Positions 2,590-23,898 of a stretch of DNA of 25,814 nucleotides are shown in pieces. Every line of letters begins with the position of its first letter. Within the stretch, counting starts at the first letter, position 1. The translations under genes were made by a program, and so were the position numbers. This stretch comes from Candidatus Heimdallarchaeota archaeon (lineage in GTDB: Archaea > Asgardarchaeota > Heimdallarchaeia > Hodarchaeales > Hodarchaeaceae), in the NCBI GenBank assembly GCA_020353515.1, contig CP070695.1:3366136-3391949 (forward strand), given 5' to 3'. Below the pieces are notes generated by a model that had not been told where the DNA came from, did not search any database, and saw only the letters and a list, made by a program, of their open reading frames with translations.

Positions 2590-3585
2590 TTAATGAGGAA
2601 GTAATTCCTTCACTTTCTTTTTTTGTTCCAATAACCAATTTGCATCTAGCTCATTAAATCCAAAGTGGTTCCAAAATGAACCAACTACCCATGGATCCAA
2701 TTTCACTTCGCTTCTTGGATTTTGAGCCACCAACCAATACGCCTGCCATAATTCAGCTACAGCAGTTTCAAAAAGTCGTGTTGTTACTTTTGTATCACTC
2801 TTTTGGCACTGATTTAAGCGTCGTTCTGATTCATTAATGGATACAAAAGCTGCCAATATCCACATCTCTCTATTTGTTCTTACATTCACCTTGTACAGGT
2901 GATCTGCTAATGTTTCTAACTCCTTTCGAGCTTTCTCGAGTTTTTCATAATCGAAAGATGAGATTCTAAGTAGATCAGCAAAAAAAGTGTAAAGCTCATC
3001 ATCAAAATCTCTTAAAACATCCAATAGGAGTGTTGCAGTTCCAATCTTAAACGCATTTGTCTGCATCAATGGAACGCAAATTGCTTCCTCTGCGGCTTTG
3101 ATTAACCAGATATATGCATCTGCAAACATATCTTCTTTGATTCTATTATTCATTCGATCTAACAACAGCTGAGTTGTTTGACGCTTTAAGTCGATTAGAT
3201 TCGGATCCCATTCAATGTGAGGAGCTTGATCCATCCACAGTTGCATCTTCCCATGAGGATCATAAATAATATCAGAATCTCGTAAAATGCGCATAACAGT
3301 GGCAACTTGCCAGTAGGGGACATTTTCTTTCCCTCCTAGGACATCCGAAAAAAATGAGGGGGGAGCATACGTCACTTTTATCTCCACATCATCTGGAATG
3401 TTAGTCATATCAGTGATAGTCGTTTCTTTTAGATCACGTACGTTTTCCCTGACAGCCCAGAGATTAATTCGTGAGTCAAACTGCTCAAAATCGTCATGTA
3501 CTAAAAGTCGCCCCTGTTCTTGGTCTTTGGCCTCTATTTTCTCCAAGAGAGTCTCAATGATTCTATTGATGATCTCAGTTTTCAA
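2590..3585 (-). CDS. Nucleotidyltransferase-fold protein with degenerate catalytic motif plus C-terminal helical bundles
   Basis: 331-aa ORF with a TTG start and GGGGA upstream. LLVHDDFEQFDSRINLWAV aligns by eye to the Pol-beta NTase hGS..SDIDLhh motif. ILRDSDIIYDPHG matches the end of MNT/KNTase domains. The C-terminal half looks helical. Confidence 0.55.
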   Translation of the reverse strand: MKTEIINRIIETLLEKIEAKDQEQGRLLVHDDFEQFDSRINLWAVRENVRDLKETTITDMTNIPDDVEIKVTYAPPSFFSDVLGGKENVPYWQVATVMRILRDSDIIYDPHGKMQLWMDQAPHIEWDPNLIDLKRQTTQLLLDRMNNRIKEDMFADAYIWLIKAAEEAICVPLMQTNAFKIGTATLLLDVLRDFDDELYTFFADLLRISSFDYEKLEKARKELETLADHLYKVNVRTNREMWILAAFVSINESERRLNQCQKSDTKVTTRLFETAVAELWQAYWLVAQNPRSEVKLDPWVVGSFWNHFGFNELDANWLLEQKKKVKELLPH

Positions 3586-7543: not shown

Positions 7544-10500
7544 ATGCCTTTCTCTACTAGAATATTTGCATATAACAATTTAATCAAATCATTAGGTGTA
7601 AGCTTGAACCGTAGTAAAATTATATGGAAAAGATGTTCAAAACATTCATTTTTTTTGTTACTGTTATTTCTATACTTTTCTATGAATATAGTGATTTTTA
7701 TATGGGCTACGAATCATAAATCAGAGGATTCTACTGATATAAAAAATGTACCAGTTCCCATTTTACGAAGCATCACAAGCTTTGATAAGAATTTAAGCTA
7801 TACTTATTCTGAAAACGAGTATTTCCAGCTTGTTTCGAACATTAATCATTTATCAAAAAATAAGTCAATGTTACCCCAAACTACAGAACCTGCTAACTCA
7901 GAAGAAATAGTTAATTTTAATATTAAAGGTTCTATAAATGGAGAATGGGCTGATACTCGATGGAATCGTCGCAAAAATATTACTATTGATCAAAGAAAAG
8001 TTAATGGGGATTTAACAAATTTTACCTTGCTTTTAGATATTTTTGATGCTGATTTACAAGAATATGCACAGGAGGATGGAGGAGATATCATATTTACTCA
8101 GGCTAGTGGTGAAAAGTTAAATCATGAAATAGAAATCTATGATCAAACTGGTAACAGTACACATGCTCATTTAGTTGCCTGGGTACAGGTTGATCTCTAT
8201 AGTTACCAAGATACTTATATTTCCATGTATTTTGGCAATAGTACGGTTTCAAATCAGGAAAAACCAGAAAATGTGTGGAGTAATGATTATATCTCCGTAT
8301 GGCATTTAAGTGAGATTGGAAATGGTTCTATTAATGAATATATAGATAGTACAGCATATAATAATCATGGACAAGGAGGAGGGGGTATTCTAGAACAAAC
8401 TCCAAATCAAGTACCTGGTCAAATTGGGATGGGACAATTTCTTGATGGTATAGATGATCTCATTCAAATACCTAGTAGTTCAAGTTTATCTAATCCTAAA
8501 GAAGAAATGACGATTGAAGGATGGGTCTATTCTCCTGATGGAGCACCTGGTGGAAGTATTATATCTTCAACTGGTGAATTTGGCTTTAATTTTTTTGATA
8601 GCGAGATTTGGATTCTCCTAAATGGAACTGAGGTTCCATATTGGCATACTGGTCAATTTACTGGTTTTAATTGGCATCACTATGTTTTTACCTATGATGG
8701 CAACCTTAATTTGTTGTATATTGATGGTGAAGAAAGATCTGGGGGAAGTAATAAAGGTACCATTCAGAACACGGAACCACTGTATATTGGCTGGAATGAT
8801 TTTGTGTCGCACTTCACAAAAGGAATTATTGATGAAGTTCGTATATCAAATATCACTAAATCTCCTGAATGGATAATGACTGAATACAATAACCAGTTTG
8901 ATCCTTATAACTTTTATTTTGTTGGTCCTATGGAGATCTATGATGAAGAGCCTCCTTTAATAAATGATTTTGGAGTGGATGATTTAGGTGATGGTTCTCC
9001 TCAATTCTGGGTAGATATTACTGATGAAAAATCCTCTATCGATTTTGTAACATTGAAACTAAATCAAACATCACATAATATGACATTTGATACCGAAACA
9101 AATCTTTGGATTTATCAACCCTCTATAGTGGCTTTTAGGGATTCTTACTTTTATGAAATTAATAATGCTTCTGATATTTGGAGAAATTATCTTTCACTCC
9201 CTTCATCCCCAAAATTTGTTATGTTCAATTATGATTCAGTTCATCCTAATGTACTGAATTGGGAATATTTCTCTGATGAAGGTGAATATGGAACATTTAA
9301 AGCTAATGTATCTGATTCATGGGGAGTGATTGATACAGTGATTGTAAACATAACCCAAGGGACAGTATTAGAGGGATCACGTTGGGCTATTATGCAAGTT
9401 AACTCCACCTATATAAATGATACAATAATTTTGGGTTCTGGGCTATTTAAATATGTGATTACAGCTAATGATACAGCTGGAAATTCTTTCACCTCTAGTG
9501 AGCATCAAGGAACTGTTCCTATTACTAATCATGCTCCAATCGTTGAGAATATTACGTTTTCACGCGATCCATCTACACCTCTTCTACCAGTATATAGTAA
9601 TAACACCTTATATTTGTTGTATGATTTTTACGACCAAGATAATGACACTGAAGCAGGAACAGAAATCAGATGGTTTAAGGATGGAGTGCTTAAGACAGCC
9701 TATAACGATATGGTTGTAGTACCAAGTACTGCGTTTGTGAAGAATAATCAATGGAATGTCACAATCCGACCGAAAGATGGATTAGATTTTGGAAACATGA
9801 CTTCTAGTGATACTATTACCATTCAGAATACGGCTCCAACCGCTTCAGGAATATCTATCACCTTAAATCCCACAACTTGTGATGATATCGAAGCTAGCTG
9901 GACACCAACCGACCAAGATGGAGACAACCCGAATGACTATCTCAATGTCACCATTATCCATTGGTTCAAATGGAATGGCTCTGGGTGGGAGTTACAATCA
10001 TTATTAGGTAATTCGACTTCAGTGGGGTCTGGAAATACTACTAAAGATGATAATTGGCATTTTACTGTAAAAATATTTGATGGAGAAGATTATTCTATCG
10101 AATATTCTTCGTCAAACACTATAGTGGTCAATTCAATACCAGTAGTCATTGATCCTGTCTTCAATGTAAGCTCAGGTGTCTCTAGTTCATTATCCTTTAA
10201 AATTGACTATACATATAATGATATAGATAATGATTTAGAAAATTCAGGGAAGAGAATCGTATATTGGTACATTAATGGTACTTACAATTCTACATTTACC
10301 AATTTCACTGTTATTAATAGTATATATACTCACGAGGGGGATTTTTGGCAGTACAAGATTGCTGTGTATGATGGATATGATTATAGTATTAATTATACCT
10401 CATCGCTTCTAGGTATTGGTGACACCTTGAATACTCCACCAACGGTCACTTCTTGTAATCTTACGGAATCACCAACTACAATTGATTATCTAATTGCCTC

Positions 10501-13500
10501 CTATATTTATTATGACAATGATGGGCATTTTCAGGTAGATCATGTGATTCATTGGTTTAAAAACAGCATTCTTCAGCCCGAATTGGATAATTTGACTGAA
10601 ATTAATCCCATTTTAACCTCAAAACATGAAGTCTGGAATTATACGTTAAGAGTCTATGATGGCTTAAATTGGTCAATTCAATACAATTCATCTATAACTA
10701 CCATTCTTAACAGCCTCCCAGAAGCTTCAGATTTAACTTTAACTTCTAACCCGACTACTGTGGATGATTTAGTAATTAGTTGGGATTATACTGATAATGA
10801 CAATGATCCATCTCTCAATTATCTTGTAAAATGGTTCATAAACAATATCTATAATGCTTCCTTTGATAATCATACCACAATTTCTTCTAACATCACAAAG
10901 AAAGGTGAAGAATGGAATTATACATTGAGGGTCTTTGATGGGGAGAATTACTCAATCCAATACAATTCTAGTTCAACGATAGTCATAAATACTTTACCTG
11001 TTGCTTTAAATGTGTCTTTAAATGAAAATCCTTTAACAAATGATAATTTAACGGTGAATTATACTTATTATGATGCAGATGGGGATAATGAGAGCTCTTC
11101 TTGGAGGATTCGCTGGTATAAAAACAATGAATTACTACCTGAACTAAATGATACAATGATTGTGAATTTTGGTAACACTACTAAGAACGAAATCTGGTAT
11201 TACAAAATCCAAATTTCAGATGGGGAGGATTATTCAAATAATTACTATTCAACAAGTCGAATTATTGAAAATACTCCTCCAATATTATCAAACTTATCAA
11301 TAACTCCTAATCCTACCACAATCACCGCATTGGAAGCCTTTTGGTCTTTTCACGACGATGATGGTGACTTTGAGAGTATTATAAGAATAATCTTATGGTA
11401 TAGAGATCATATTCATCAGCCATCTTTAGATAACCGAATCTTAGTTCCTTCAGTCTACACCTCAAAAGGAGAACTATGGCATTATGGGGTTAAAGTCTTT
11501 GATGGAACAGATTATTCTGTCCAATTCAATTCTACAATCATCTCCATTTTAAATTCACCCCCAACAGCATCAAGTTTAAGCCTCACAGACTTTCCAACAA
11601 CTAACGATTATCTCTACGCAAATTGGATCTTCTTTGACTTGGATAATGATGTTGAAAATAACAATTCCATTATACGTTGGTTTAAAAATGGTGAGTTACA
11701 ATCTGATTACAATAATCTCCATATAATTCCTTCAATTGCAACTAGCAAAGGCGATACTTGGAACTATACTGTTTGTGTTTATGATGGAACAGATTACTCA
11801 ATTCAATATTCATCTCCTCTTGCAGTAATAAGGAATAGTGCCCCAACAGTAAATAATATCCAAATTAAGAACTCAATTTGCCCTGAATTTCAAGTAGAGG
11901 ATGTTAATCTCAATATTACTTATCATATTGATGATTTAGATAATGATACGGATTTTTCCTTGATTCGTTGGTATGTTAATGGATCCTATCAACCTCAATT
12001 CGAGGGAATGAAGTTTATTTCTGCTAATAATACCAATCCTGGAGAAATTTGGACTATTGAAATCCTTCCTTTTGATGGAAGTGATTATGGCCCCAAAATT
12101 GGTTTATCATTAATCATTGAAAGTCGACCTACAATAAATGATTTTTATTATAAAAGCCTTAAGGACTTAGAGGGACATTATCTCTTTCAAGTAAATGTTA
12201 CTGATCCTAGAAATCCTTTGAAAAACTATGATGAAGTAGTTTACCAGATATATGTAAATAATTCGATTCTTCTACAAGAAAATTTGGCCAAGGAAAACGA
12301 AACAACAAATCTTTGGGAGCTTGATTTCCAATTAGAAAACTATTTCTACATTGGTTATCAAATAGACATAGTAGTAACTGCAACAACTGTAGTAAAATAC
12401 TCCAATATGTATTATGATATTAAAATAAGTAGAAATTTTAGTTTGATTTTGGAAGATGTAGCTCCGCCACGTATTTTGAACATTTATCATGAAATAGATA
12501 ATGAAGACCGACCTACAAATATTACTTTTTATGTTGAAATTCAAGAGTTTGGACTTGGGGTTTTTAATGTTACTCTTTTCTACCGTTATGAGTCTATCAA
12601 TTCAACTGAAGGAGGAAATGGGGCACAAGAAATCCTGTGGTATCAGGTACCAATGGTTTACCAATATGAAAATATCTCTAGGAATTCCAAATTTTATTCT
12701 GTTACAGTAGATTTTTCACCAGCTTTAGATACAACAATTTTTTACAGAATTCAAGCAGCTGATTATCAAGGTAATGTTAATTCAGAAAATACTCCATTTA
12801 ACTTTACTTTTAAGCCTATAATAAATCGAAGCACAATTGAATTAAGTGATCTCTTACCACTTTTAGTATTGGTTGGAGTTCTTCCAGCATTTCTAATTAC
12901 AGCAATGATAATAGCTCGAAAATATCACCAAACTAGAGTTCTTACCCAGAAAAGAAAAAAGAAAAAAATTATAGATAGAATATCTGACATCTTATCTCTA
13001 CGTGTTATAATATGTCGAAATAAAAGTGGTATTGCGTTCTTTACAAATAGCTTTGCAGGATATGGTCAAGATGAAGACATGATTGCTGGGATAACTTCAG
13101 CTATGACCAGTATGGTTTCAGAAATAGCAGAGCGGAAAATAAATAGTGGAGAGTATGACATCTTGGAGCGTGAGGGATTCAGTATCCTTTCTTATCATGG
13201 TAAGTATAGTACAATAAGCATGATATCTGAAGAGAAATTAAGTTTATACATGAAAAAGAAGATGCAAAAGCTTGCTTATGAAATTGAAAATCATTTTACA
13301 CAGGAGGAATTGGAAGGTTTAATTACACCTGAATTATCCAAAGGTGTGGAAAAAATTGTTTTAGAGATTCTTCCAATTAGATTATTAAGGCCATTAATAT
13401 TTGATCAATCTCTATTCATAACCAATATTAATCAATTTTCAAAATACGAAAGAAAAATGAGTGAATATATCAGCGAAATTCCATCCTTTATTGATGGCCA

Positions 13501-13663
13501 ACACACTTTCTATGCAATAAACTTTATCTCTTCCCTTACAGTCCAAGGGGTTCCACTAATAAAAGCCTTTAATTTTCTAGAACATTGTTATAAATCAGAA
13601 ATAATACGAAATCTTTCCGAGGAAGAGCTTACATTTTTAGGTTCTGTAACAACTCCTCAATGA
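7544..13663 (+). CDS. Giant cell-surface protein: DUF2341 + LamG-like domains, nine cadherin/Ig-like repeats, one C-terminal TM helix, cytoplasmic longin-like and winged-helix-like region
   Basis: 2039-aa ORF with an N-terminal hydrophobic signal/anchor. DUF2341-like region (RKNITID..DGGDIIFT..LNHEIE..AWVQV..MYFGN, from ~7946); LamG-like region (WHHYVFTYDG..LYIDG..GIIDEVRIS, to ~8895); repeats 9527-12121; TM 12851-12916 followed by a basic stretch. Many N-x-S/T sequons lie before the TM. The true start may be TTG 7604 (AGGTG upstream). Confidence 0.85.
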   Translation: MPFSTRIFAYNNLIKSLGVSLNRSKIIWKRCSKHSFFLLLLFLYFSMNIVIFIWATNHKSEDSTDIKNVPVPILRSITSFDKNLSYTYSENEYFQLVSNINHLSKNKSMLPQTTEPANSEEIVNFNIKGSINGEWADTRWNRRKNITIDQRKVNGDLTNFTLLLDIFDADLQEYAQEDGGDIIFTQASGEKLNHEIEIYDQTGNSTHAHLVAWVQVDLYSYQDTYISMYFGNSTVSNQEKPENVWSNDYISVWHLSEIGNGSINEYIDSTAYNNHGQGGGGILEQTPNQVPGQIGMGQFLDGIDDLIQIPSSSSLSNPKEEMTIEGWVYSPDGAPGGSIISSTGEFGFNFFDSEIWILLNGTEVPYWHTGQFTGFNWHHYVFTYDGNLNLLYIDGEERSGGSNKGTIQNTEPLYIGWNDFVSHFTKGIIDEVRISNITKSPEWIMTEYNNQFDPYNFYFVGPMEIYDEEPPLINDFGVDDLGDGSPQFWVDITDEKSSIDFVTLKLNQTSHNMTFDTETNLWIYQPSIVAFRDSYFYEINNASDIWRNYLSLPSSPKFVMFNYDSVHPNVLNWEYFSDEGEYGTFKANVSDSWGVIDTVIVNITQGTVLEGSRWAIMQVNSTYINDTIILGSGLFKYVITANDTAGNSFTSSEHQGTVPITNHAPIVENITFSRDPSTPLLPVYSNNTLYLLYDFYDQDNDTEAGTEIRWFKDGVLKTAYNDMVVVPSTAFVKNNQWNVTIRPKDGLDFGNMTSSDTITIQNTAPTASGISITLNPTTCDDIEASWTPTDQDGDNPNDYLNVTIIHWFKWNGSGWELQSLLGNSTSVGSGNTTKDDNWHFTVKIFDGEDYSIEYSSSNTIVVNSIPVVIDPVFNVSSGVSSSLSFKIDYTYNDIDNDLENSGKRIVYWYINGTYNSTFTNFTVINSIYTHEGDFWQYKIAVYDGYDYSINYTSSLLGIGDTLNTPPTVTSCNLTESPTTIDYLIASYIYYDNDGHFQVDHVIHWFKNSILQPELDNLTEINPILTSKHEVWNYTLRVYDGLNWSIQYNSSITTILNSLPEASDLTLTSNPTTVDDLVISWDYTDNDNDPSLNYLVKWFINNIYNASFDNHTTISSNITKKGEEWNYTLRVFDGENYSIQYNSSSTIVINTLPVALNVSLNENPLTNDNLTVNYTYYDADGDNESSSWRIRWYKNNELLPELNDTMIVNFGNTTKNEIWYYKIQISDGEDYSNNYYSTSRIIENTPPILSNLSITPNPTTITALEAFWSFHDDDGDFESIIRIILWYRDHIHQPSLDNRILVPSVYTSKGELWHYGVKVFDGTDYSVQFNSTIISILNSPPTASSLSLTDFPTTNDYLYANWIFFDLDNDVENNNSIIRWFKNGELQSDYNNLHIIPSIATSKGDTWNYTVCVYDGTDYSIQYSSPLAVIRNSAPTVNNIQIKNSICPEFQVEDVNLNITYHIDDLDNDTDFSLIRWYVNGSYQPQFEGMKFISANNTNPGEIWTIEILPFDGSDYGPKIGLSLIIESRPTINDFYYKSLKDLEGHYLFQVNVTDPRNPLKNYDEVVYQIYVNNSILLQENLAKENETTNLWELDFQLENYFYIGYQIDIVVTATTVVKYSNMYYDIKISRNFSLILEDVAPPRILNIYHEIDNEDRPTNITFYVEIQEFGLGVFNVTLFYRYESINSTEGGNGAQEILWYQVPMVYQYENISRNSKFYSVTVDFSPALDTTIFYRIQAADYQGNVNSENTPFNFTFKPIINRSTIELSDLLPLLVLVGVLPAFLITAMIIARKYHQTRVLTQKRKKKKIIDRISDILSLRVIICRNKSGIAFFTNSFAGYGQDEDMIAGITSAMTSMVSEIAERKINSGEYDILEREGFSILSYHGKYSTISMISEEKLSLYMKKKMQKLAYEIENHFTQEELEGLITPELSKGVEKIVLEILPIRLLRPLIFDQSLFITNINQFSKYERKMSEYISEIPSFIDGQHTFYAINFISSLTVQGVPLIKAFNFLEHCYKSEIIRNLSEEELTFLGSVTTPQ
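9527..12121 (+). repeat. Nine tandem ~93-101 aa Ig/cadherin-like protein repeats
   Basis: Units start at N-x-x-P at 9527, 9827, 10130, 10430, 10709, 10988, 11270, 11552 and 11834. Each has D-x-D-x-D (one D-x-D-x-H), a W(F/Y) strand, K(G)(D/E)xW-type and (F/Y)DGx(D/N)YS-type motifs. The units are diverged at the DNA level. Confidence 0.9.
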
Positions 13664-13871: not shown

Positions 13872-14753
13872 GTGATTGCTATCATGATTGAAGAAAAGGA
13901 GATTGGACCGAGGATTGGCGCTCATAAATCAATCGCTAAATCAATTGATCTGGCGATCGATCGAGGAGTACACAGCACTTGTGAATGTCTGCAAATATTT
14001 ACTCGACCTCCAAGACGTTGGAACACGGTAGAACTTAAACCTAATGCTGTTCAAGAATTCATTAAGAAGTCTAATGCAGCAAATTATTATGACACAGCTA
14101 TACATATGCCCTATCTCCCAAATCTTGCCAGTCCAGATGATACTTTATTTGAAAAATCTGTCAAAGTTTTAATTGAAGAGATAGAAAAGATGCCTATATT
14201 ACATGTACCTTATGTGATAACTCATTTGGGGAGTCCAAAAGACCTCGATGAAGTATTTGCTGCAAAGCGTGTTGCAGAAGCGTTAAATCGAGGCCTGAAT
14301 CACATAAAGAAGTCTTCGATGATATTATTAGAAAATTCAACAGCAAAAAGAAAGAAGTGGGGGAATGAAATTGAACATATTGAGGCAATTCTCAGCTTGG
14401 TTGAGGAAGAACATTTTATTGGTGTGTGCTTCGATACTGCTCATGCTTTTTCATCAGGTTATGATATATCTACCTCAGAAGGCCTAAATGAAGTTATAGA
14501 TAACTTAGAAGGCTTAGTAGGTAAAAACAAACTCCAAATGTTCCATATCAATGATTCTAAAGGTCCTCTTGGCTCTGGAATAGATCATCATGAACATATT
14601 GGTAAAGGTTATATTGGAATAGAATGTTTTAGAGAATTAATGCAAAATCCTCGTTTTAAAAAATTCCCCATGATTCTCGAAACTCCAAAAAGTGATCAAA
14701 TTGGGGATATAAATAACTTAGAACTCTTGAGAAAATTCCGTTCAAGGAGTTAA
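13872..14753 (+). CDS. nfo: Endonuclease IV (AP endonuclease family 2)
   Basis: IGAH, QIFTRPPR, IHMPYLPNLAS, HLGS, LLENSTA, CFDTAH, HINDSK, DHHEHIGKG and ILETP supply the EndoIV metal-ligand set. The start may be ATG 13884. Confidence 0.95.
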   Translation: MIAIMIEEKEIGPRIGAHKSIAKSIDLAIDRGVHSTCECLQIFTRPPRRWNTVELKPNAVQEFIKKSNAANYYDTAIHMPYLPNLASPDDTLFEKSVKVLIEEIEKMPILHVPYVITHLGSPKDLDEVFAAKRVAEALNRGLNHIKKSSMILLENSTAKRKKWGNEIEHIEAILSLVEEEHFIGVCFDTAHAFSSGYDISTSEGLNEVIDNLEGLVGKNKLQMFHINDSKGPLGSGIDHHEHIGKGYIGIECFRELMQNPRFKKFPMILETPKSDQIGDINNLELLRKFRSRS

Positions 14754-14768
14754 TAGAGGAGAAAAACC

Positions 14769-15317
14769 GTGAAGCATCCGATTTCAGATTTGAGTACAGC
14801 CTATCGATATCTATACCCAAGGTTAACGGTTTTAGTTTCTTCAGGAACATTACAAAACCCTAATGCCTTAACAATAGCATGGTCATGCCCATTATCAGTT
14901 GACCCACCCTTAATAGGAGTTTTAATAACAAAAAAGCGTTATTCACATGAAATAATTCAGCGTCACAATGAATTCGTTATAAACATCCCAGATAGTTCAC
15001 AGGTTAAGGAGAGCTATCATATAGGTCGTATTAGTGGGCGAGTAGAACCGCAAAAGCTTAAAAATGCTGGATTTAGTGTGGAAACCTCAACTATGATTAA
15101 AGCTCCACGAATTAAAGAATGTCATATTAATCTAGAATGTAAATTGAAAGATATTATCCCAACTGGAGATCATGATTTATTTATTGGAGAGGTGGTTTTT
15201 ATTGCGATTAATCATGAAATCACAGATAATTGGGCTTTTGATTTGAAAAAGTTTAAGCCAATTTATTGGAGACAATCAAGATCGACAGAAGAAACCTATC
15301 ATCTTGATTTAAAATGA
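14769..15317 (+). CDS. Flavin reductase-like FMN-binding protein
   Basis: YPRLTVLVSS, NALTIAW, PPLIGV, EFVINIP, APRIKECHINLEC and GDHDLFIGEV motifs; GAGGAG upstream of the GTG start. Confidence 0.92.
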   Translation: MKHPISDLSTAYRYLYPRLTVLVSSGTLQNPNALTIAWSCPLSVDPPLIGVLITKKRYSHEIIQRHNEFVINIPDSSQVKESYHIGRISGRVEPQKLKNAGFSVETSTMIKAPRIKECHINLECKLKDIIPTGDHDLFIGEVVFIAINHEITDNWAFDLKKFKPIYWRQSRSTEETYHLDLK

Positions 15318-16426
15318 GATATAAGGAAAGACAGATGAAATCAAAGAAAAATTCTTGTTTAGAAATTGAAGATCAAACTGTTTATTTCAAATCATCAGAA
15401 AGAATGGATGAAATCCCATCTGAATCCATAACTTTAGTTGTTACTTCCCCTCCTTATTGGAACGTTCGTGATTATGGTGGAGAACAGATTGGATTCGGGC
15501 AAAGTTATACTAGCTATATCGAATCTTTAAATAAAGTATGGTCAGAGTGCATTCGAGTTCTTCAACCTAATGGAAAAATTGCGATTAATATTCAACCCCT
15601 CCCAATTGAAGCTAGTCGTTCTGGATTCAATCGACGTATAATCCAAAATATCATGTGGGATATTGAAAAATTCATGCGATCAGCGAAAATGTATCTTTCT
15701 GGGATGCACTATTGGGATAAATCTGAGTATGTCTCAAATGTATCTTGGGGATCCTACCCCAAACCGACTAATATTGCCTCAAATACTGGTTTCGAACAAA
15801 TATTTGTTTGGGTCAAAAAAGGGAAGACTAGAATAGTTCCAAAGGATATTTTAGCTCAAAGTATTCTTACGAAAAGTGAATGGCGGCATTGGGCCGTTCG
15901 ATGCATCTGGGACGATATTTCTCCAGTTTTTAAGATTGATTCCAAAGGCCAAAACAGGTTTGGTCATTCTGCGCCATTTCCAGAAGATATTCCTTTTCGT
16001 TTGATTAAAATGCATACAGCGATCGGCGAAACAGTACTGGATCCTTTCCTTGGTTCTGGAACGACTCTTAAGATGTGTCGATTAACATCGAGAAAAGGGA
16101 TAGGATACGAAATAAATTCAGATTATGCGGAATTAATTCGTACACGAATTTTAGAAAAATGGAAACCTCCTTCTATCGAAGCACAATATAAAACCTTCGG
16201 AACAACTCAATTCTACAGAATTTTAGAGTTCATGTATCAACGATTGAAGGAAGAGCCTTTATTATCATTAAATTCGTTTTGGGGAGATTTATTGAGGAGT
16301 TTTCCACAAAAAATGACAAAATCTTGGATTAAACATCTAAAAAACTTGGAAGAAGAAACCCAAAATAATTTAGTAACCTCTCAAAAGACAATTCTCGATA
16401 GATTTTTAGATCAACCTAAAAAATGA
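15314..16426 (+). CDS. Site-specific DNA methyltransferase, N6-adenine/N4-cytosine beta class, apparently orphan
   Basis: Motif IV VTSPPY lies N-terminal; HSAPFP and motif I VLDPFLGSGTT plus GIGYEI lie C-terminal (beta order). It overlaps the flavin reductase stop by ATGA. There is a ~85-aa C-terminal extension, and no adjacent restriction endonuclease. Confidence 0.92.
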   Translation: MRYKERQMKSKKNSCLEIEDQTVYFKSSERMDEIPSESITLVVTSPPYWNVRDYGGEQIGFGQSYTSYIESLNKVWSECIRVLQPNGKIAINIQPLPIEASRSGFNRRIIQNIMWDIEKFMRSAKMYLSGMHYWDKSEYVSNVSWGSYPKPTNIASNTGFEQIFVWVKKGKTRIVPKDILAQSILTKSEWRHWAVRCIWDDISPVFKIDSKGQNRFGHSAPFPEDIPFRLIKMHTAIGETVLDPFLGSGTTLKMCRLTSRKGIGYEINSDYAELIRTRILEKWKPPSIEAQYKTFGTTQFYRILEFMYQRLKEEPLLSLNSFWGDLLRSFPQKMTKSWIKHLKNLEEETQNNLVTSQKTILDRFLDQPKK

Positions 16427-16779: not shown

Positions 16780-16983
16780 ATGGCAGGTTTTGCCTCCGCA
16801 CGTGTTGAAAAACTTATCCGTAATGCCGGAGCTAGACGAGTTTCTGCTGACGCGATTAACAGATTAAATGAAGTTCTAACTGATTATGCCACAAACATCG
16901 CCAAATACGCAGTTGAGATCGCTCGTCACTCTGGTAGGAAAACTATTAAGGAAAATGACATTAAGCTAGCAGCCGCTAAATAA
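16780..16983 (+). CDS. Archaeal histone (HMfA/HMfB family, tailless)
   Basis: 67-aa histone fold with RVEKLIRNAGARRVS (AGA loop 1), HSGRKTIKENDI (R-T..D salt bridge) and a strong SD. Confidence 0.96.
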   Translation: MAGFASARVEKLIRNAGARRVSADAINRLNEVLTDYATNIAKYAVEIARHSGRKTIKENDIKLAAAK

Positions 16984-19576: not shown

Positions 19577-20686
19577 TTGGATTGGAGCCATGTTATCATC
19601 CATGTAGATCTAGATGCCTTTTTTGCAGCTGTTCATATAAAGAACCATCCCTTTCTAAGAGGTTATCCAGTTATCATTGGCGCAAATCCTCAGAAAGGTA
19701 ACGGGCGTGGCGTAGTATCAACCTGTTCTTATGAAGCACGAAGGTTTGGTCTTCATTCCGCCATGCCTATCTCTCAAGCATATAAATTATGCCCTCATGG
19801 TGTATACATCTGTTCTGGTACTCCAATATCATTTTCTCATTATCATGAAGAATCAGAAAAGGTTATGACGATCTTACTTAAATATACGGATATTTTTCAA
19901 AATGCTGGAGTTGATGAAGCATATTTAGACGTTACAAAGGTATGGTCTGACTATGGCTCAACACCTAAATCAATAGCTGAAACTATTCAAACAGAAATCC
20001 AGAATCAACTATCTCTGCCTGTTTCTCTTGGTGTAGCTGAAACGAAATCTATTGCCAAAATAGCCTCTGACTTAGGTAAACCTAATGGAATTACTCTTGT
20101 TCATAACTCAGAGCTGGATAGAATTATATATAATCTACCTGCACGAAAAATTGTGGGAATTGGGAAAAAAACAGAACAACAGCTACAAAAAAAAGGAATC
20201 GTCACCATAGGCGATATTGCATCACTATCCCGTGAGAAAGCATACCTACTCATGGGTGATCATGGACTTTATCTGAGAAAAGTCGCGCTTGGAAACAATT
20301 ATCGTAGCGTCGGTTATAGCCATAATGGACGGAAATCAATTGGTTCTGAGCGAACCTTTGGAAAAGATCAAAATGATTGGGATTTCATAGAAAATACTGT
20401 GGATCAAATTGTTTCAAGATTATCTGGAAGATTGAAGAAAAATAATCTTTTAACTCGGACTATTTCCATTAAAATCCGTTTTCAAGGTTTTATCACATAT
20501 ACTCGGAGTTTTAGCTTTCAAAACTTCTTATCGGATGAAAAGACAATATTTAAAACAGCAATCAAACTCCTTGAAGAATTTAAATCATCATCAAAGAAAG
20601 TTAGGCTTATAGGTGTTCGTGTTACTTCTTTGAAAAGTAAGGAAGGACAACTTATCTTAACACCATTTCTAGCGTCTAGTAATTGA
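19577..20686 (+). CDS. dinB: DNA polymerase IV (Y family)
   Basis: HVDLDAFFA, SYEARRFG.HSAMP, VDEAYLD, AKIASD..KPNG, GIGKKT, KSIGSERTF and VRLIGV motifs; C-terminal PIP-like QLILTPFL; TTG start after GGTGG. Confidence 0.96.
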   Translation: MDWSHVIIHVDLDAFFAAVHIKNHPFLRGYPVIIGANPQKGNGRGVVSTCSYEARRFGLHSAMPISQAYKLCPHGVYICSGTPISFSHYHEESEKVMTILLKYTDIFQNAGVDEAYLDVTKVWSDYGSTPKSIAETIQTEIQNQLSLPVSLGVAETKSIAKIASDLGKPNGITLVHNSELDRIIYNLPARKIVGIGKKTEQQLQKKGIVTIGDIASLSREKAYLLMGDHGLYLRKVALGNNYRSVGYSHNGRKSIGSERTFGKDQNDWDFIENTVDQIVSRLSGRLKKNNLLTRTISIKIRFQGFITYTRSFSFQNFLSDEKTIFKTAIKLLEEFKSSSKKVRLIGVRVTSLKSKEGQLILTPFLASSN

Positions 20687-20825
20687 TAAATAAGATCTAT
20701 ATATATTGAAAAAGAGAATTCTTTTGAATTGTAAAAAGAAATTAGCGAAGTTTAAAAAATCAGTAACAATTTTCATATTCTAATTATTCTGGAAAGAGTT
20801 GCATTCATTTAAGGAGTGATTGCTA

Positions 20826-22379
20826 ATGGTATATCGATTAACATCAATGACCATGAAAACAAAAGTAATTTTTTTCTGTCTTATTTGGTTTTTTTCTGCG
20901 ATATGTGCAATTATTGGCACTCTATTTATAGCAACAGCCGCAATTTTACCTCAAACTCCCTATAATGTCGAACCAAGTCCAGTGGTTGGACAAATTAGGC
21001 AAAATCTCGGACAACAAATAGCACTTGATTATTATGATCCAAAAACAGATGAATTCTATGGGAATGTCTCGATTGTAGAGGGGGTGGAGGAATATCAGTT
21101 AGTTGATGAAAATAATGTTAAAATTGGGCCACTTGTCCCATGGAACCTAAGAGAGTTCCATACTAATGGGTCTGTGTTCTATTTAGATGATCCAGGTATT
21201 CTTGTTTTTGAAATATTTCGCGAAAATTCAATATCAAGTTATGAAGTAAAAGCTGATCCTGAACATCTTAAGGTAGATGTTTCACGAAGACAACTAACGT
21301 TAAATTATCAACCTGGTAAGATTTTTCAGATTAACCATAGAATTATAGATTTTTCAGACACCACAGAAGAAGAAAAACCAAATATTGAGAATGTTGGAAG
21401 ATATTTTACTGTAACCAATCGTGGTTGGGTTGATTGGTTTTTTATAATTCTCAGAGCTCTGTGGTTATATTCTTGGGACGCATTTATCATGATCGGACGT
21501 ATCATCCTCGTTACTGTGGCGATTGGGGGAGGACTTGGGATATTATTTGCATTTTTCCTAATGATAACACGTCTTTCTAAACTCTTTGGAGGGAAATATT
21601 TAACATTTCTAATATTAAAGGCTTTACATGGAAAAATTGGTAAAATTCTCAGCTATATTCCTATTTTCGACTTCATAGGAGATTTTTTTGTTGATGAACG
21701 TTTAGTTGATGTGATTGATTTTTCTGGGATAAGACCCACTCTTTCAGAATTATATAAGCAACGATGGTATGATATTTTAGTTTTTCCAACTGCTCTGGCC
21801 TCTATCCTAACAATATTTTTTGTACAATATTATCCAGGTGAAAATAAGACGGATGCTCTTGTTTTAAGTCCTTTATTAACTCCAATAGTCTTAATTCTCA
21901 TTTTAATCTACTACCCCCTAATCTTTGCCTTCAATGAGGGTGGATTCAAGAGGATGCAAATAAGTCCTCAGGGAGATATTATTGCAGTAAAACCTTTAGG
22001 AAATATTCTGAGAGATGGTCTTGGAATTGTTATTGGTTTCTCAGGTATTTTATCCTTGGGAGCCTTAGCGTATGAAGTTAATACTAGCACTGCACGTCAA
22101 GCAACAACCACTGGTCAATTACAAGTCGCCGGATTTAGCCTTGACATTTTTAGTATACTCTTACTCATCCTATGGACTCTCGGTTTATTTTTCATCCTCC
22201 TAGGGTCATCTTTTGTTGGAGCATCCATACTAGCCGTCCATTACTTACAGACCTCCCATTTAGATACAATTGAATATCTTAGAACGCAATCAGAAGAGAA
22301 AGGAGTAGTTACCAACTGGGGCTCGGTTACTTATCAATTTAGTCCAGTAGCGACCAAGGCAATATTTGAAAAAACATAG
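20826..22379 (+). CDS. Hypothetical polytopic membrane protein with a ~155-aa soluble (likely extracellular) domain
   Basis: N-terminal TM, a beta-rich hydrophilic region, then about 6-7 hydrophobic segments. AGGAGTGA is well spaced for ATG 20826 (the ORF track gives TTG 20820). No family recognised. Confidence 0.75.
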   Translation: MVYRLTSMTMKTKVIFFCLIWFFSAICAIIGTLFIATAAILPQTPYNVEPSPVVGQIRQNLGQQIALDYYDPKTDEFYGNVSIVEGVEEYQLVDENNVKIGPLVPWNLREFHTNGSVFYLDDPGILVFEIFRENSISSYEVKADPEHLKVDVSRRQLTLNYQPGKIFQINHRIIDFSDTTEEEKPNIENVGRYFTVTNRGWVDWFFIILRALWLYSWDAFIMIGRIILVTVAIGGGLGILFAFFLMITRLSKLFGGKYLTFLILKALHGKIGKILSYIPIFDFIGDFFVDERLVDVIDFSGIRPTLSELYKQRWYDILVFPTALASILTIFFVQYYPGENKTDALVLSPLLTPIVLILILIYYPLIFAFNEGGFKRMQISPQGDIIAVKPLGNILRDGLGIVIGFSGILSLGALAYEVNTSTARQATTTGQLQVAGFSLDIFSILLLILWTLGLFFILLGSSFVGASILAVHYLQTSHLDTIEYLRTQSEEKGVVTNWGSVTYQFSPVATKAIFEKT

Positions 22380-23364: not shown

Positions 23365-23898
23365 GTGATATCTAAAGAAGAAATCCGTGAATTTCAAGAA
23401 GATTATGACTCTCTTGACACTGAAGATTATTCTGAATTATTTAAATTCATCATTCGAATAGTACGACGATTTCTAGATAAATCTCGGCCTGGGATCATGT
23501 TAGGATTAGTAGAAATGGGATATGATCGAGGTAACTTCGTTGGGGGTTTCCATCGCCTTGGGACAAATGAGGTTTATCTGAATAAGTCAGCTCTCAGGAT
23601 CATGCGAGAAGAAACTTCAGAGGATCTCTATAAGGCATATCTCTTTCATTTATTACTTCATGAGTACATTCATACAAATAATTTTGTTGATGAGAAAGAA
23701 ACTCGTCAATTAACCCGTAATATCTCAATAGCTATTTTTGGGGAACGACATCCTATTGGTCGAATAGCAATCTTTGGATTGGGCTCATTATTCCCATATA
23801 AATTCCACCAAGAACGCTATAGACCAACTAAACAAGAATTATTGAATCCAGAGTTCATCTTGTTGCGTCATCCCGACAGCGAGTTCACATATCTTTGA
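23365..23898 (+). CDS. HExxH-motif (zincin-like) putative metallopeptidase
   Basis: LLLHEYIH (HEYIH at 23659-23673), preceded by GGFH..GTNEVYLN strands and followed by DEKETR (possible third ligand). Confidence 0.7.
   Translation: MISKEEIREFQEDYDSLDTEDYSELFKFIIRIVRRFLDKSRPGIMLGLVEMGYDRGNFVGGFHRLGTNEVYLNKSALRIMREETSEDLYKAYLFHLLLHEYIHTNNFVDEKETRQLTRNISIAIFGERHPIGRIAIFGLGSLFPYKFHQERYRPTKQELLNPEFILLRHPDSEFTYL

Follow-up and report, generated by a model that had tools for sequence, protein, structure and literature searches.

A DNA methyltransferase gene was examined in the window, i.e., the whole 25,814-nucleotide stretch of contig CP070695.1 of Candidatus Heimdallarchaeota archaeon, whose genome is a single contig of 4.94 Mb and whose proteins have relatives named Hodarchaeales, Hodarchaeota or Heimdall-group. 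The encoded methylase ends in a short peptide that resembles a PCNA-interacting peptide (PIP) box without the first glutamine. It appears rather likely, although well short of certain, that this solitary methylase, probably forming N4-methylcytosine (m4C), docks on PCNA via the terminal peptide and marks nascent DNA. The evidence consists of the position-specific conservation of the peptide in orthologues, the reappearance of such a peptide on unrelated methylases and on proteins of this genome that are known PCNA clients, and the orphan position of the gene in a conserved operon. The features of the gene are as follows.

15314..16426, plus strand: solitary beta-class DNA methyltransferase of 370 amino acids (aa), from the open reading frame (ORF) call and PF01555
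15428..16138, plus strand: PF01555 N6_N4_Mtase catalytic core, residues 39-275, from the Pfam profile
15443..15460, plus strand: motif IV TSPPYW, residues 44-49 (T44-W49 invariant in 60 orthologues)
16040..16066, plus strand: motif I DPFLGSGTT, residues 243-251 (D243-T250 invariant in 60 orthologues)
16160..16348, plus strand: family-specific helical C-terminal extension, residues 283-345 (AlphaFold2 (AF2) helices 297-313, 319-329 and the start of 336-365)
16349..16384, plus strand: polar linker of low conservation, residues 346-357, its last residue being the out-of-register Gln357 (column entropies of 2.3-3.4 bits, with indels)
16385..16408, plus strand: PIP-like core KTILDRFL, residues 358-365 (hydrophobic trident Leu361, Phe364 and Leu365)

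The catalytic core was assigned with the PF01555 profile at an E value of 4e-36 and 125.4 bits, against a cut-off of 26.7. Motif IV ([SDN]PP[YF]) preceded motif I (FxGxG), which is the permutation of the beta class. A motif IV with Ser is characteristic of N4-cytosine enzymes. The nearest solved cores were those of TTHA0409 (2zie; phmmer E value of 7e-29, Foldseek E value of 4e-19) and of a rotifer enzyme (8s9m; Foldseek E value of 1e-15). The AF2 model superposed on 2zif with a TM-score of 0.82, normalised to the target (E value of 3.6e-19), and also matched 8s9m, 6pbd and 1boo; hence, it has the fold of the solved beta-class members. Because of the TSPPYW form of motif IV, the naming of the orthologues as cytosine-N4-specific by JGI, and these nearest structures, the methylase is probably specific for N4-cytosine.

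The core ended at ...GYEINSDYAELI and was followed by the helical extension. In the AF2 model, which was built from a 60-orthologue alignment and had an overall predicted local distance difference test (pLDDT) value of 79, the extension was placed with a pLDDT of 92-95 across residues 300-340, and the value went down to 60-68 in the last 20 residues. Residues 276-370 folded alone reached a pLDDT of 86. A fold search with this segment against 48,161 PDB representatives gave no match with a Z value of at least 5; the hits were generic helical hairpins, from which neither a fold nor a function could be derived. The helical extension was present in all orthologues, including those without the terminal peptide; its early part was invariant (E281, W283 and Y292), and the remainder was variable with indels. 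The motif QKTILDRFL occupied 16382-16408, with the CAA codon of Gln357 at 16382-16384, and was followed by DQPKK and the stop codon. The motif therefore lies five residues from the C-terminus behind an indel-rich linker, and Leu361, Phe364 and Leu365 fall on PIP positions 4, 7 and 8. The initial annotation, which was made from the letters alone, had described a beta-class core ending at the same sequence, then a helical extension and a polar linker, and a terminal motif with an imperfect PIP match. All of these descriptions held, and the coordinates were exact.

The conservation of the peptide was evaluated in 111 C-terminally complete orthologues, with shuffles of the last 40 residues as the null. 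The orthologues were 58-91% identical to the query protein. The loose motif, [LIMVF]xx[FYW][FYWLIVM] within the last 14 residues, occurred in 55 of the 111, whereas 8.5 were expected from the shuffles (maximum 18), and a tighter form occurred in 46 against 5 expected, so that the enrichment was 6- to 9-fold. The tight matches were concentrated at the very end, with 40 of them ending 0-4 residues from the C-terminus and no more than 6 in any other five-residue bin of the last 90 residues. A lone loose match is not significant, and it is the recurrence in the orthologues that takes the tail beyond chance. In the 36 tail-bearing orthologues used for column statistics, only three tail columns were conserved, namely 361 (L30/F4/I1/M1, 0.86 bit), 364 (F22/Y13/W1, 1.11 bit) and 365 (L14/F14/V4/I4, 1.76 bit); the surrounding columns had entropies of 2.3-3.4 bits, and the column of PIP position 1 was unconserved (K10/F5/R3 and others). 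Moreover, the extensions of distant clades were just 17-30% identical to the query, and their ends still aligned as K-x-[LFIM]-[D/x]-x-[FY]-[FLIV]. In a tree of the catalytic core only, tailed forms occurred in each major clade, the most basal branch included, with at least 16 changes of state. The linkers differed greatly among the tailed clades, and the tails took forms such as VLDKFF, KSFDEFL, SLLKFI, TLFDFV and QLDSYF. Natural tail-less orthologues stopped directly after the KSWIxHL helix, the last helix of the core; hence, the tail is an add-on that is not needed for the fold. These alignments support the view that the tail behaves as an archaeal PIP-type short linear motif and not as a structural helix. 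The terminal motif, whose conservation among homologues the initial annotation had proposed to check, was present in about half of the family and in all major clades, and the rest lacked it.

The C-termini of the genome's own PCNA clients were used as the yardstick for the form of a PIP box. Canonical boxes were found at the ends of PolB (QVNLMEFFS), Fen1 (QRALDQFF) and NreA (QKTLDVFFKK), and also on a DUF72 protein, a radical-SAM/HhH protein and a RadA-like protein. A further canonical box lies within the window itself.

20648..20671, plus strand: canonical PIP box QLILTPFL of DinB (gene 19577-20686), the C-terminal reference motif in the window

The C-terminal sequence of DinB reads ...GQLILTPFLASSN, with its canonical box in QLILTPFLASSN, and its likeness to the methylase tail was correctly seen in the initial annotation. 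Two other clients departed from the canonical form. The large subunit of RFC (RFC-L; 4071370-4072959, plus strand), encoded just downstream of PCNA, ended in KKSLTDFFN and had no Gln, and NucS/EndoMS (979545-980327, plus strand) ended in QTKRLDDFF with the Gln one residue out of register. The NucS tail and QKTILDRFL share the same spacing, that is, Q, three residues, and L-x-x-aromatic-hydrophobic. Hence, non-canonical forms are normal in this organism, and the imperfection of the methylase motif is common to accepted clients. Binding to PCNA through C-terminal PIPs has been shown experimentally for NucS and NreA (PMC4929162). PCNA is encoded by a single gene in the genome (4069459-4070313).

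Two side observations concern PCNA and possible clients. The O6-methylguanine-DNA methyltransferase (Ogt/MGMT; PF01035 and PF02870; 1043335-1043961, minus strand) has a PIP-like tail, RKKSLTEFM. PCNA itself ends in an acidic tail, about 35 residues long and containing spaced Trp residues (...EEWDSNEDWDEDDE). This tail is kept through the genus (EDWDEDEDWDEDEE; in one subclade DDEYDDEYDDEED), whereas the next families, whose PCNAs have about 30% identity, lack it. It could contact the basic linkers ahead of many PIP tails, or it could auto-regulate the clamp.

Tails of the same kind were found on other methylases of the genome. The tight motif ended 6 of the 25 PF01555 ORFs against a background of 6.9% (binomial P = 0.006), and when only compact PF01555 enzymes were counted, 6 of 13 (P = 1e-4). 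Besides the tail of the methylase at 15314-16426, the ends were KLTDFMK, LNLDNFL, VLTKFLDESK, QSTLERFLQE and NLDSWLSKNQK. The six enzymes were 22-35% identical and of mixed SPPY and DPPY/DPPF types, and since the motif sits on non-homologous extensions of such divergent proteins, the tail was acquired repeatedly. One of the other tailed methylases adjoined an Eco57I-type IIG enzyme, and another adjoined a DUF1156 methylase. Among 149 distant beta-class representatives, the overall rate of such tails was at the background level, and the clear PIP-like tails on named representatives were archaeal, from Heimdallarchaeaceae and Marsarchaeota. As further observations, the two tailed methylases at 3538712-3540780 and 2229125-2231021 have replication-type neighbours: one adjoins a DHH/DHHA1 phosphoesterase (RecJ/GAN-like, 357 aa), and the other adjoins an SSB/RPA-like OB-fold protein (189 aa). 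Ends of the form Q-L-x-L-F, which are similar to bacterial beta-clamp motifs (e.g., KQLSLFD), were seen in 3 of the 149 distant methylases against 0.18 expected from shuffles. This hints that methylases may be tethered to clamps in bacteria too, although the numbers are too small for a firm statement.

The docking of the tail on PCNA was modelled by a co-fold in which PCNA residues 1-252, with an alignment of 18 rows, were paired with methylase residues 326-370, with one of 60 rows. A score of 0.44 was obtained (runs of 0.44, 0.33 and 0.46), whereas the best of three controls gave 0.01. According to the calibration, 58 of 80 solved complexes passed the mark, as did 2 of 110 mismatched pairs; the passes at 0.60 or under comprised only 7 of the 80 solved complexes and both of these mismatches. 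The runs shared at least 45% of contacts, the pLDDT of the partner was at least 43, and no interface was reported. Furthermore, because PIP-PCNA complexes are solved, the pass may be a memory of, or a likeness to, known complexes. The co-fold hence lends weak support to docking, and the modelled binding of the peptide to PCNA, as envisaged in the initial annotation, was obtained to that degree.

These results are consistent with the following mechanism. The enzyme would be a resident chromosomal methylase of a Hodarchaeales-type Asgard genus, presumably co-transcribed with the genes of an endonuclease IV (nfo) and a flavin reductase. Past the core and the three-helix extension, the flexible polar linker would present the Gln-less PIP-type peptide K-T-I-L-D-R-F-L, and Leu361, Phe364 and Leu365 would enter the hydrophobic pocket of PCNA. 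The enzyme would thereby be tethered to clamps remaining on new DNA, and its sites on the nascent duplex would be methylated just behind the fork or after repair synthesis. A role at repair patches is conceivable from the operon with an apurinic/apyrimidinic (AP) endonuclease. The principle would be similar to that of DNMT1, having arisen independently in an unrelated methyltransferase fold.

The neighbouring genes on which the operon assignment is based are listed below.

13872..14753, plus strand: nfo, endonuclease IV (AP endonuclease), first gene of a three-gene unit (TIGR00587 with an E value of 2.4e-68, and PF01261)
14769..15317, plus strand: flavin reductase-like gene (PF01613 with an E value of 8e-31)
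16780..16983, plus strand: archaeal histone gene, a neighbour outside the unit (PF00808 and NF043032)

The flavin reductase gene begins 15 nucleotides after nfo, and its stop codon overlaps the start codon of the methylase by four nucleotides (ATGA). In all 16 same-genus loci, nfo was found upstream of the methylase, and the flavin reductase gene lay between them in 13 of the 16; a response-regulator gene was kept downstream of the methylase. This order has been maintained even though PCNA identity within the genus is as low as 55%. The methylase was 67-85% identical across these loci, compared with 58-78% for nfo, and therefore did not diverge faster. No restriction-type nuclease was recognisable in the 25.8-kb window, where no nuclease domain turned up apart from nfo, SfsA and DinB-type DNA enzymes; thus, the adjacent restriction endonuclease that marks a methylase of a type II restriction-modification system was absent from the window, a distant nuclease elsewhere in the genome being possible. 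In Lokiarchaeota, Bathyarchaeota, a Heimdall-labelled metagenome-assembled genome and two other contigs, the orthologue had no shared neighbour, and the surroundings were unrelated and mostly housekeeping. The coupling to housekeeping genes and the lack of a neighbouring restriction endonuclease, both pointed out at the outset, are borne out by these results. The histone gene is also where it had been reported, and its adjacency was not conserved: of the 15 genus loci extending past the 3' end of the methylase, 6 had no histone there, and a 353-bp AT-rich spacer separates the two genes. On both grounds, the adjacency is regarded as incidental, and a functional link to the histone was dropped. 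Beside the Lokiarchaeal orthologue (JAIZWK010000001.1), two histone genes lie within 2 kb on the opposite strand with a metallo-beta-lactamase-fold gene between, and this proximity may be due to chance.

Elsewhere in the window, a 2039-aa ORF (7544-13663, plus strand) has an N-terminal signal/anchor-like segment, many tandem domains, each about 100 aa long and with numerous N-x-S/T sites, a single transmembrane segment and a cytoplasmic C-terminal domain, and it looks like a giant surface protein. The ORFs at 20820-22379 (plus strand), 2590-3585 (minus strand) and 23365-23898 (plus strand), with 519, 331 and 177 aa, respectively, had no Pfam match at E <= 0.001; the first of them directly follows DinB.

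At the scale of the databases, the methylase family formed a single tight 50% cluster, after which identity dropped to 49% and 45%. Within the family, identity between phyla was 60-70%. The tight cluster, the high identity between phyla and the sharp drop afterwards suggest horizontal spread among sediment archaea followed by stable residence. One large Asgard family had merely a 280-aa relative at 44% identity. A status as universal Asgard core gene was rejected, as most of the families sampled yielded no orthologue. A viral or mobile origin was likewise rejected, there being no close relative in INPHARED phages (at most 32% identity) and none in IMG/VR.

Attempts to derive the recognition site from tetranucleotide palindromes did not lead to an assignment, because the genome holds about 25 PF01555 ORFs and the statistics could not be attributed to this methylase. 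CTAG, an idea that came only from a 31%-identical viral gene annotated as M.MjaI-like, was not depleted (observed/expected of 1.05) and was discarded. CCGG was scarce genome-wide, with 1090 occurrences against 2873 expected from trinucleotides (ratio 0.38), whereas all other 4-bp palindromes had ratios of 0.84-1.26. This suggests CCGG-directed restriction or modification pressure on the genome.

Several points weigh against the docking of the methylase on PCNA. Position 1 of the box is occupied by Lys358 and not by Gln, with Gln357 one residue early, and the last trident residue in this copy is Leu and not Phe or Tyr. The loose motif was matched in the last 14 residues of 15% of the genome's ORFs, which is the chance level. 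In the AF2 model, the tail was drawn as continuous with the last helix (336-365) at the low pLDDT given above, which speaks neither for nor against disorder. About half of the orthologues, one same-genus subclade included, had no tail, and the tether is therefore dispensable for the enzyme. Unless the proposed pair was already likely, a weak co-fold pass of this type will be false more often than true. Moreover, in a sample of 301 Asgard genomes, the orthologue occurred in 16 of 20 genomes of the genus; two other families had it in 5 of 7 and in 2 of 68 genomes, and it was found in none of the remaining families sampled. Judged from these sequences, such a patchy distribution fits horizontal spread as well as a core function. 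Finally, a PCNA tether would be equally useful for self-protection in a restriction-modification setting. Hence, of the replication-coupled system proposed in the initial annotation, the PIP-type motif, the operon and the missing restriction neighbour stand, and they are set against the tail-less half and the patchiness of the family; the further step, to a maintenance-type or regulatory system as opposed to restriction-modification, goes beyond these results.

Self-protection is also the core of an unlikely alternative, in which the methylase would be left over from a restriction-modification or other defence system, or belong to one as a distant partner, and the tether, if real, would serve to methylate nascent DNA rapidly before a nuclease acts and not for regulation or maintenance. 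Such an origin would agree with the many PF01555 ORFs and several modification islands of the genome, with the tailed methylases beside the Eco57I-type IIG enzyme and the DUF1156 methylase, and with the Bathyarchaeota orthologue, which is set among large methylases. The family is patchy in Asgard archaea and yet 60-70% identical between phyla, which suggests horizontal transfer, and the CCGG ratio shows that restriction-type pressure exists. However, the window has no restriction-type nuclease and the six lineage contexts have no neighbour in common, the gene is translationally coupled to housekeeping genes in an order kept genus-wide, it diverges no faster than its neighbours, and the virus collections hold no close relatives.

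The tail could also be a real linear motif with a partner other than PCNA, such as a different hub of the replisome or of repair, or a further methylase subunit with which it would dimerise. This is improbable. PIP-like peptides are promiscuous in eukaryotes, the Gln of position 1 is missing and the co-fold support is weak, whereas the same type of peptide is carried by RFC-L, NucS, Fen1, PolB, NreA and DinB, whose common partner is PCNA, the genome has a lone PCNA gene, and no other hub for such tails is known in archaea. Slightly less probable still is a tail without any partner, i.e., the amphipathic end of the last helix or a neutral C-terminal drift that resembles a PIP box. The single AF2 helix for residues 336-365, the tail-less half of the orthologues and the chance rate of the loose pattern are in its favour, but drift of this kind would not readily give an enrichment pinned to the last four residues, three hydrophobic positions conserved amid a linker of variable length and sequence, or the independent gain of the motif by five unrelated methylases of the genome. 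Docking on PCNA is preferred over either possibility.

The wider meaning depends on whether the tail binds PCNA. In the literature searched, which was incomplete, no paper on PIP-bearing archaeal DNA methyltransferases and no report of archaeal clamp-coupled DNA methylation were found, which is not proof of novelty; the known clamp-coupled DNA methylation is eukaryotic (DNMT1). Were the tail to bind PCNA, an entire group of Asgard methylases would operate on the replication clamp. The restoration of orphan methylation marks on every newly made strand would then be accounted for, an enzyme class would join the archaeal PCNA interactome, and there would be a testable example of convergence in fork-coupled epigenetic marking, in the closest lineage to eukaryotes. 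It may tentatively be proposed, with less confidence than the docking of this one enzyme, that in Asgard archaea, and in certain other archaea, it is routine for many unrelated solitary methylases to be tethered to PCNA through independently acquired C-terminal PIPs, as a functional forerunner or analogue of DNMT1-PCNA coupling. With many methylases tethered in this way, methylation would be replication-coupled and organised by the clamp, and patterns would be inherited faithfully in the closest prokaryotic relatives of eukaryotes. In annotation, the tail would be a simple marker that tells replication-coupled methylases from ordinary ones.

Compared with the archaeal clients that bind PCNA by C-terminal PIPs (Fen1, PolB, RFC large subunit, Dpo4/DinB, NucS/EndoMS and NreA; PMC4929162), the methylase is alike in its peptide at the extreme C-terminus, in the flexible polar or basic linker before it, and in the trident h-x-x-aromatic-hydrophobic, in the form seen in RFC-L, NucS and DinB of this genome. 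It differs in that its Gln is one residue off and the tail is optional in the family. Furthermore, DNA methyltransferases are not listed among PCNA clients in the papers found or in the review of archaeal PCNA partners, where a methyltransferase appears only as a protein co-purifying with NucS (PMC4929162).

In terms of fold, TTHA0409 of Thermus thermophilus (2zie/2zif/2zig) and the bdelloid rotifer N4CMT (8s9m) have the SPPY motif IV and the beta-class order in common with the methylase at 24-28% identity, but the alignments end at about residue 282, and there is no counterpart of the 95-residue extension and tail. The bacterial cell-cycle methylases CcrM (6pbd) and Dam are orphans as well. 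CcrM belongs to the beta class and has an additional C-terminal domain; Foldseek aligned 300 columns of the methylase to it, and the sequence likeness was limited to motif I. It is an N6-adenine enzyme that is controlled by transcription and proteolysis and not by a clamp-binding peptide. Eukaryotic DNMT1 is brought to replication forks by its PCNA-binding (PIP) domain, and the logic proposed here is alike, in that a methyltransferase on the sliding clamp would mark DNA right after synthesis. DNMT1 is, however, a C5-cytosine enzyme (PF00145) whose PIP lies near the N-terminus and which has domains that read hemimethylated DNA, whereas the archaeal methylase, a small PF01555 enzyme of the beta class, has its tail at the C-terminus and neither a DNMT1-type C5-cytosine domain nor a reader domain. 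Since the two folds are unrelated, the likeness would be one of principle only and convergent.

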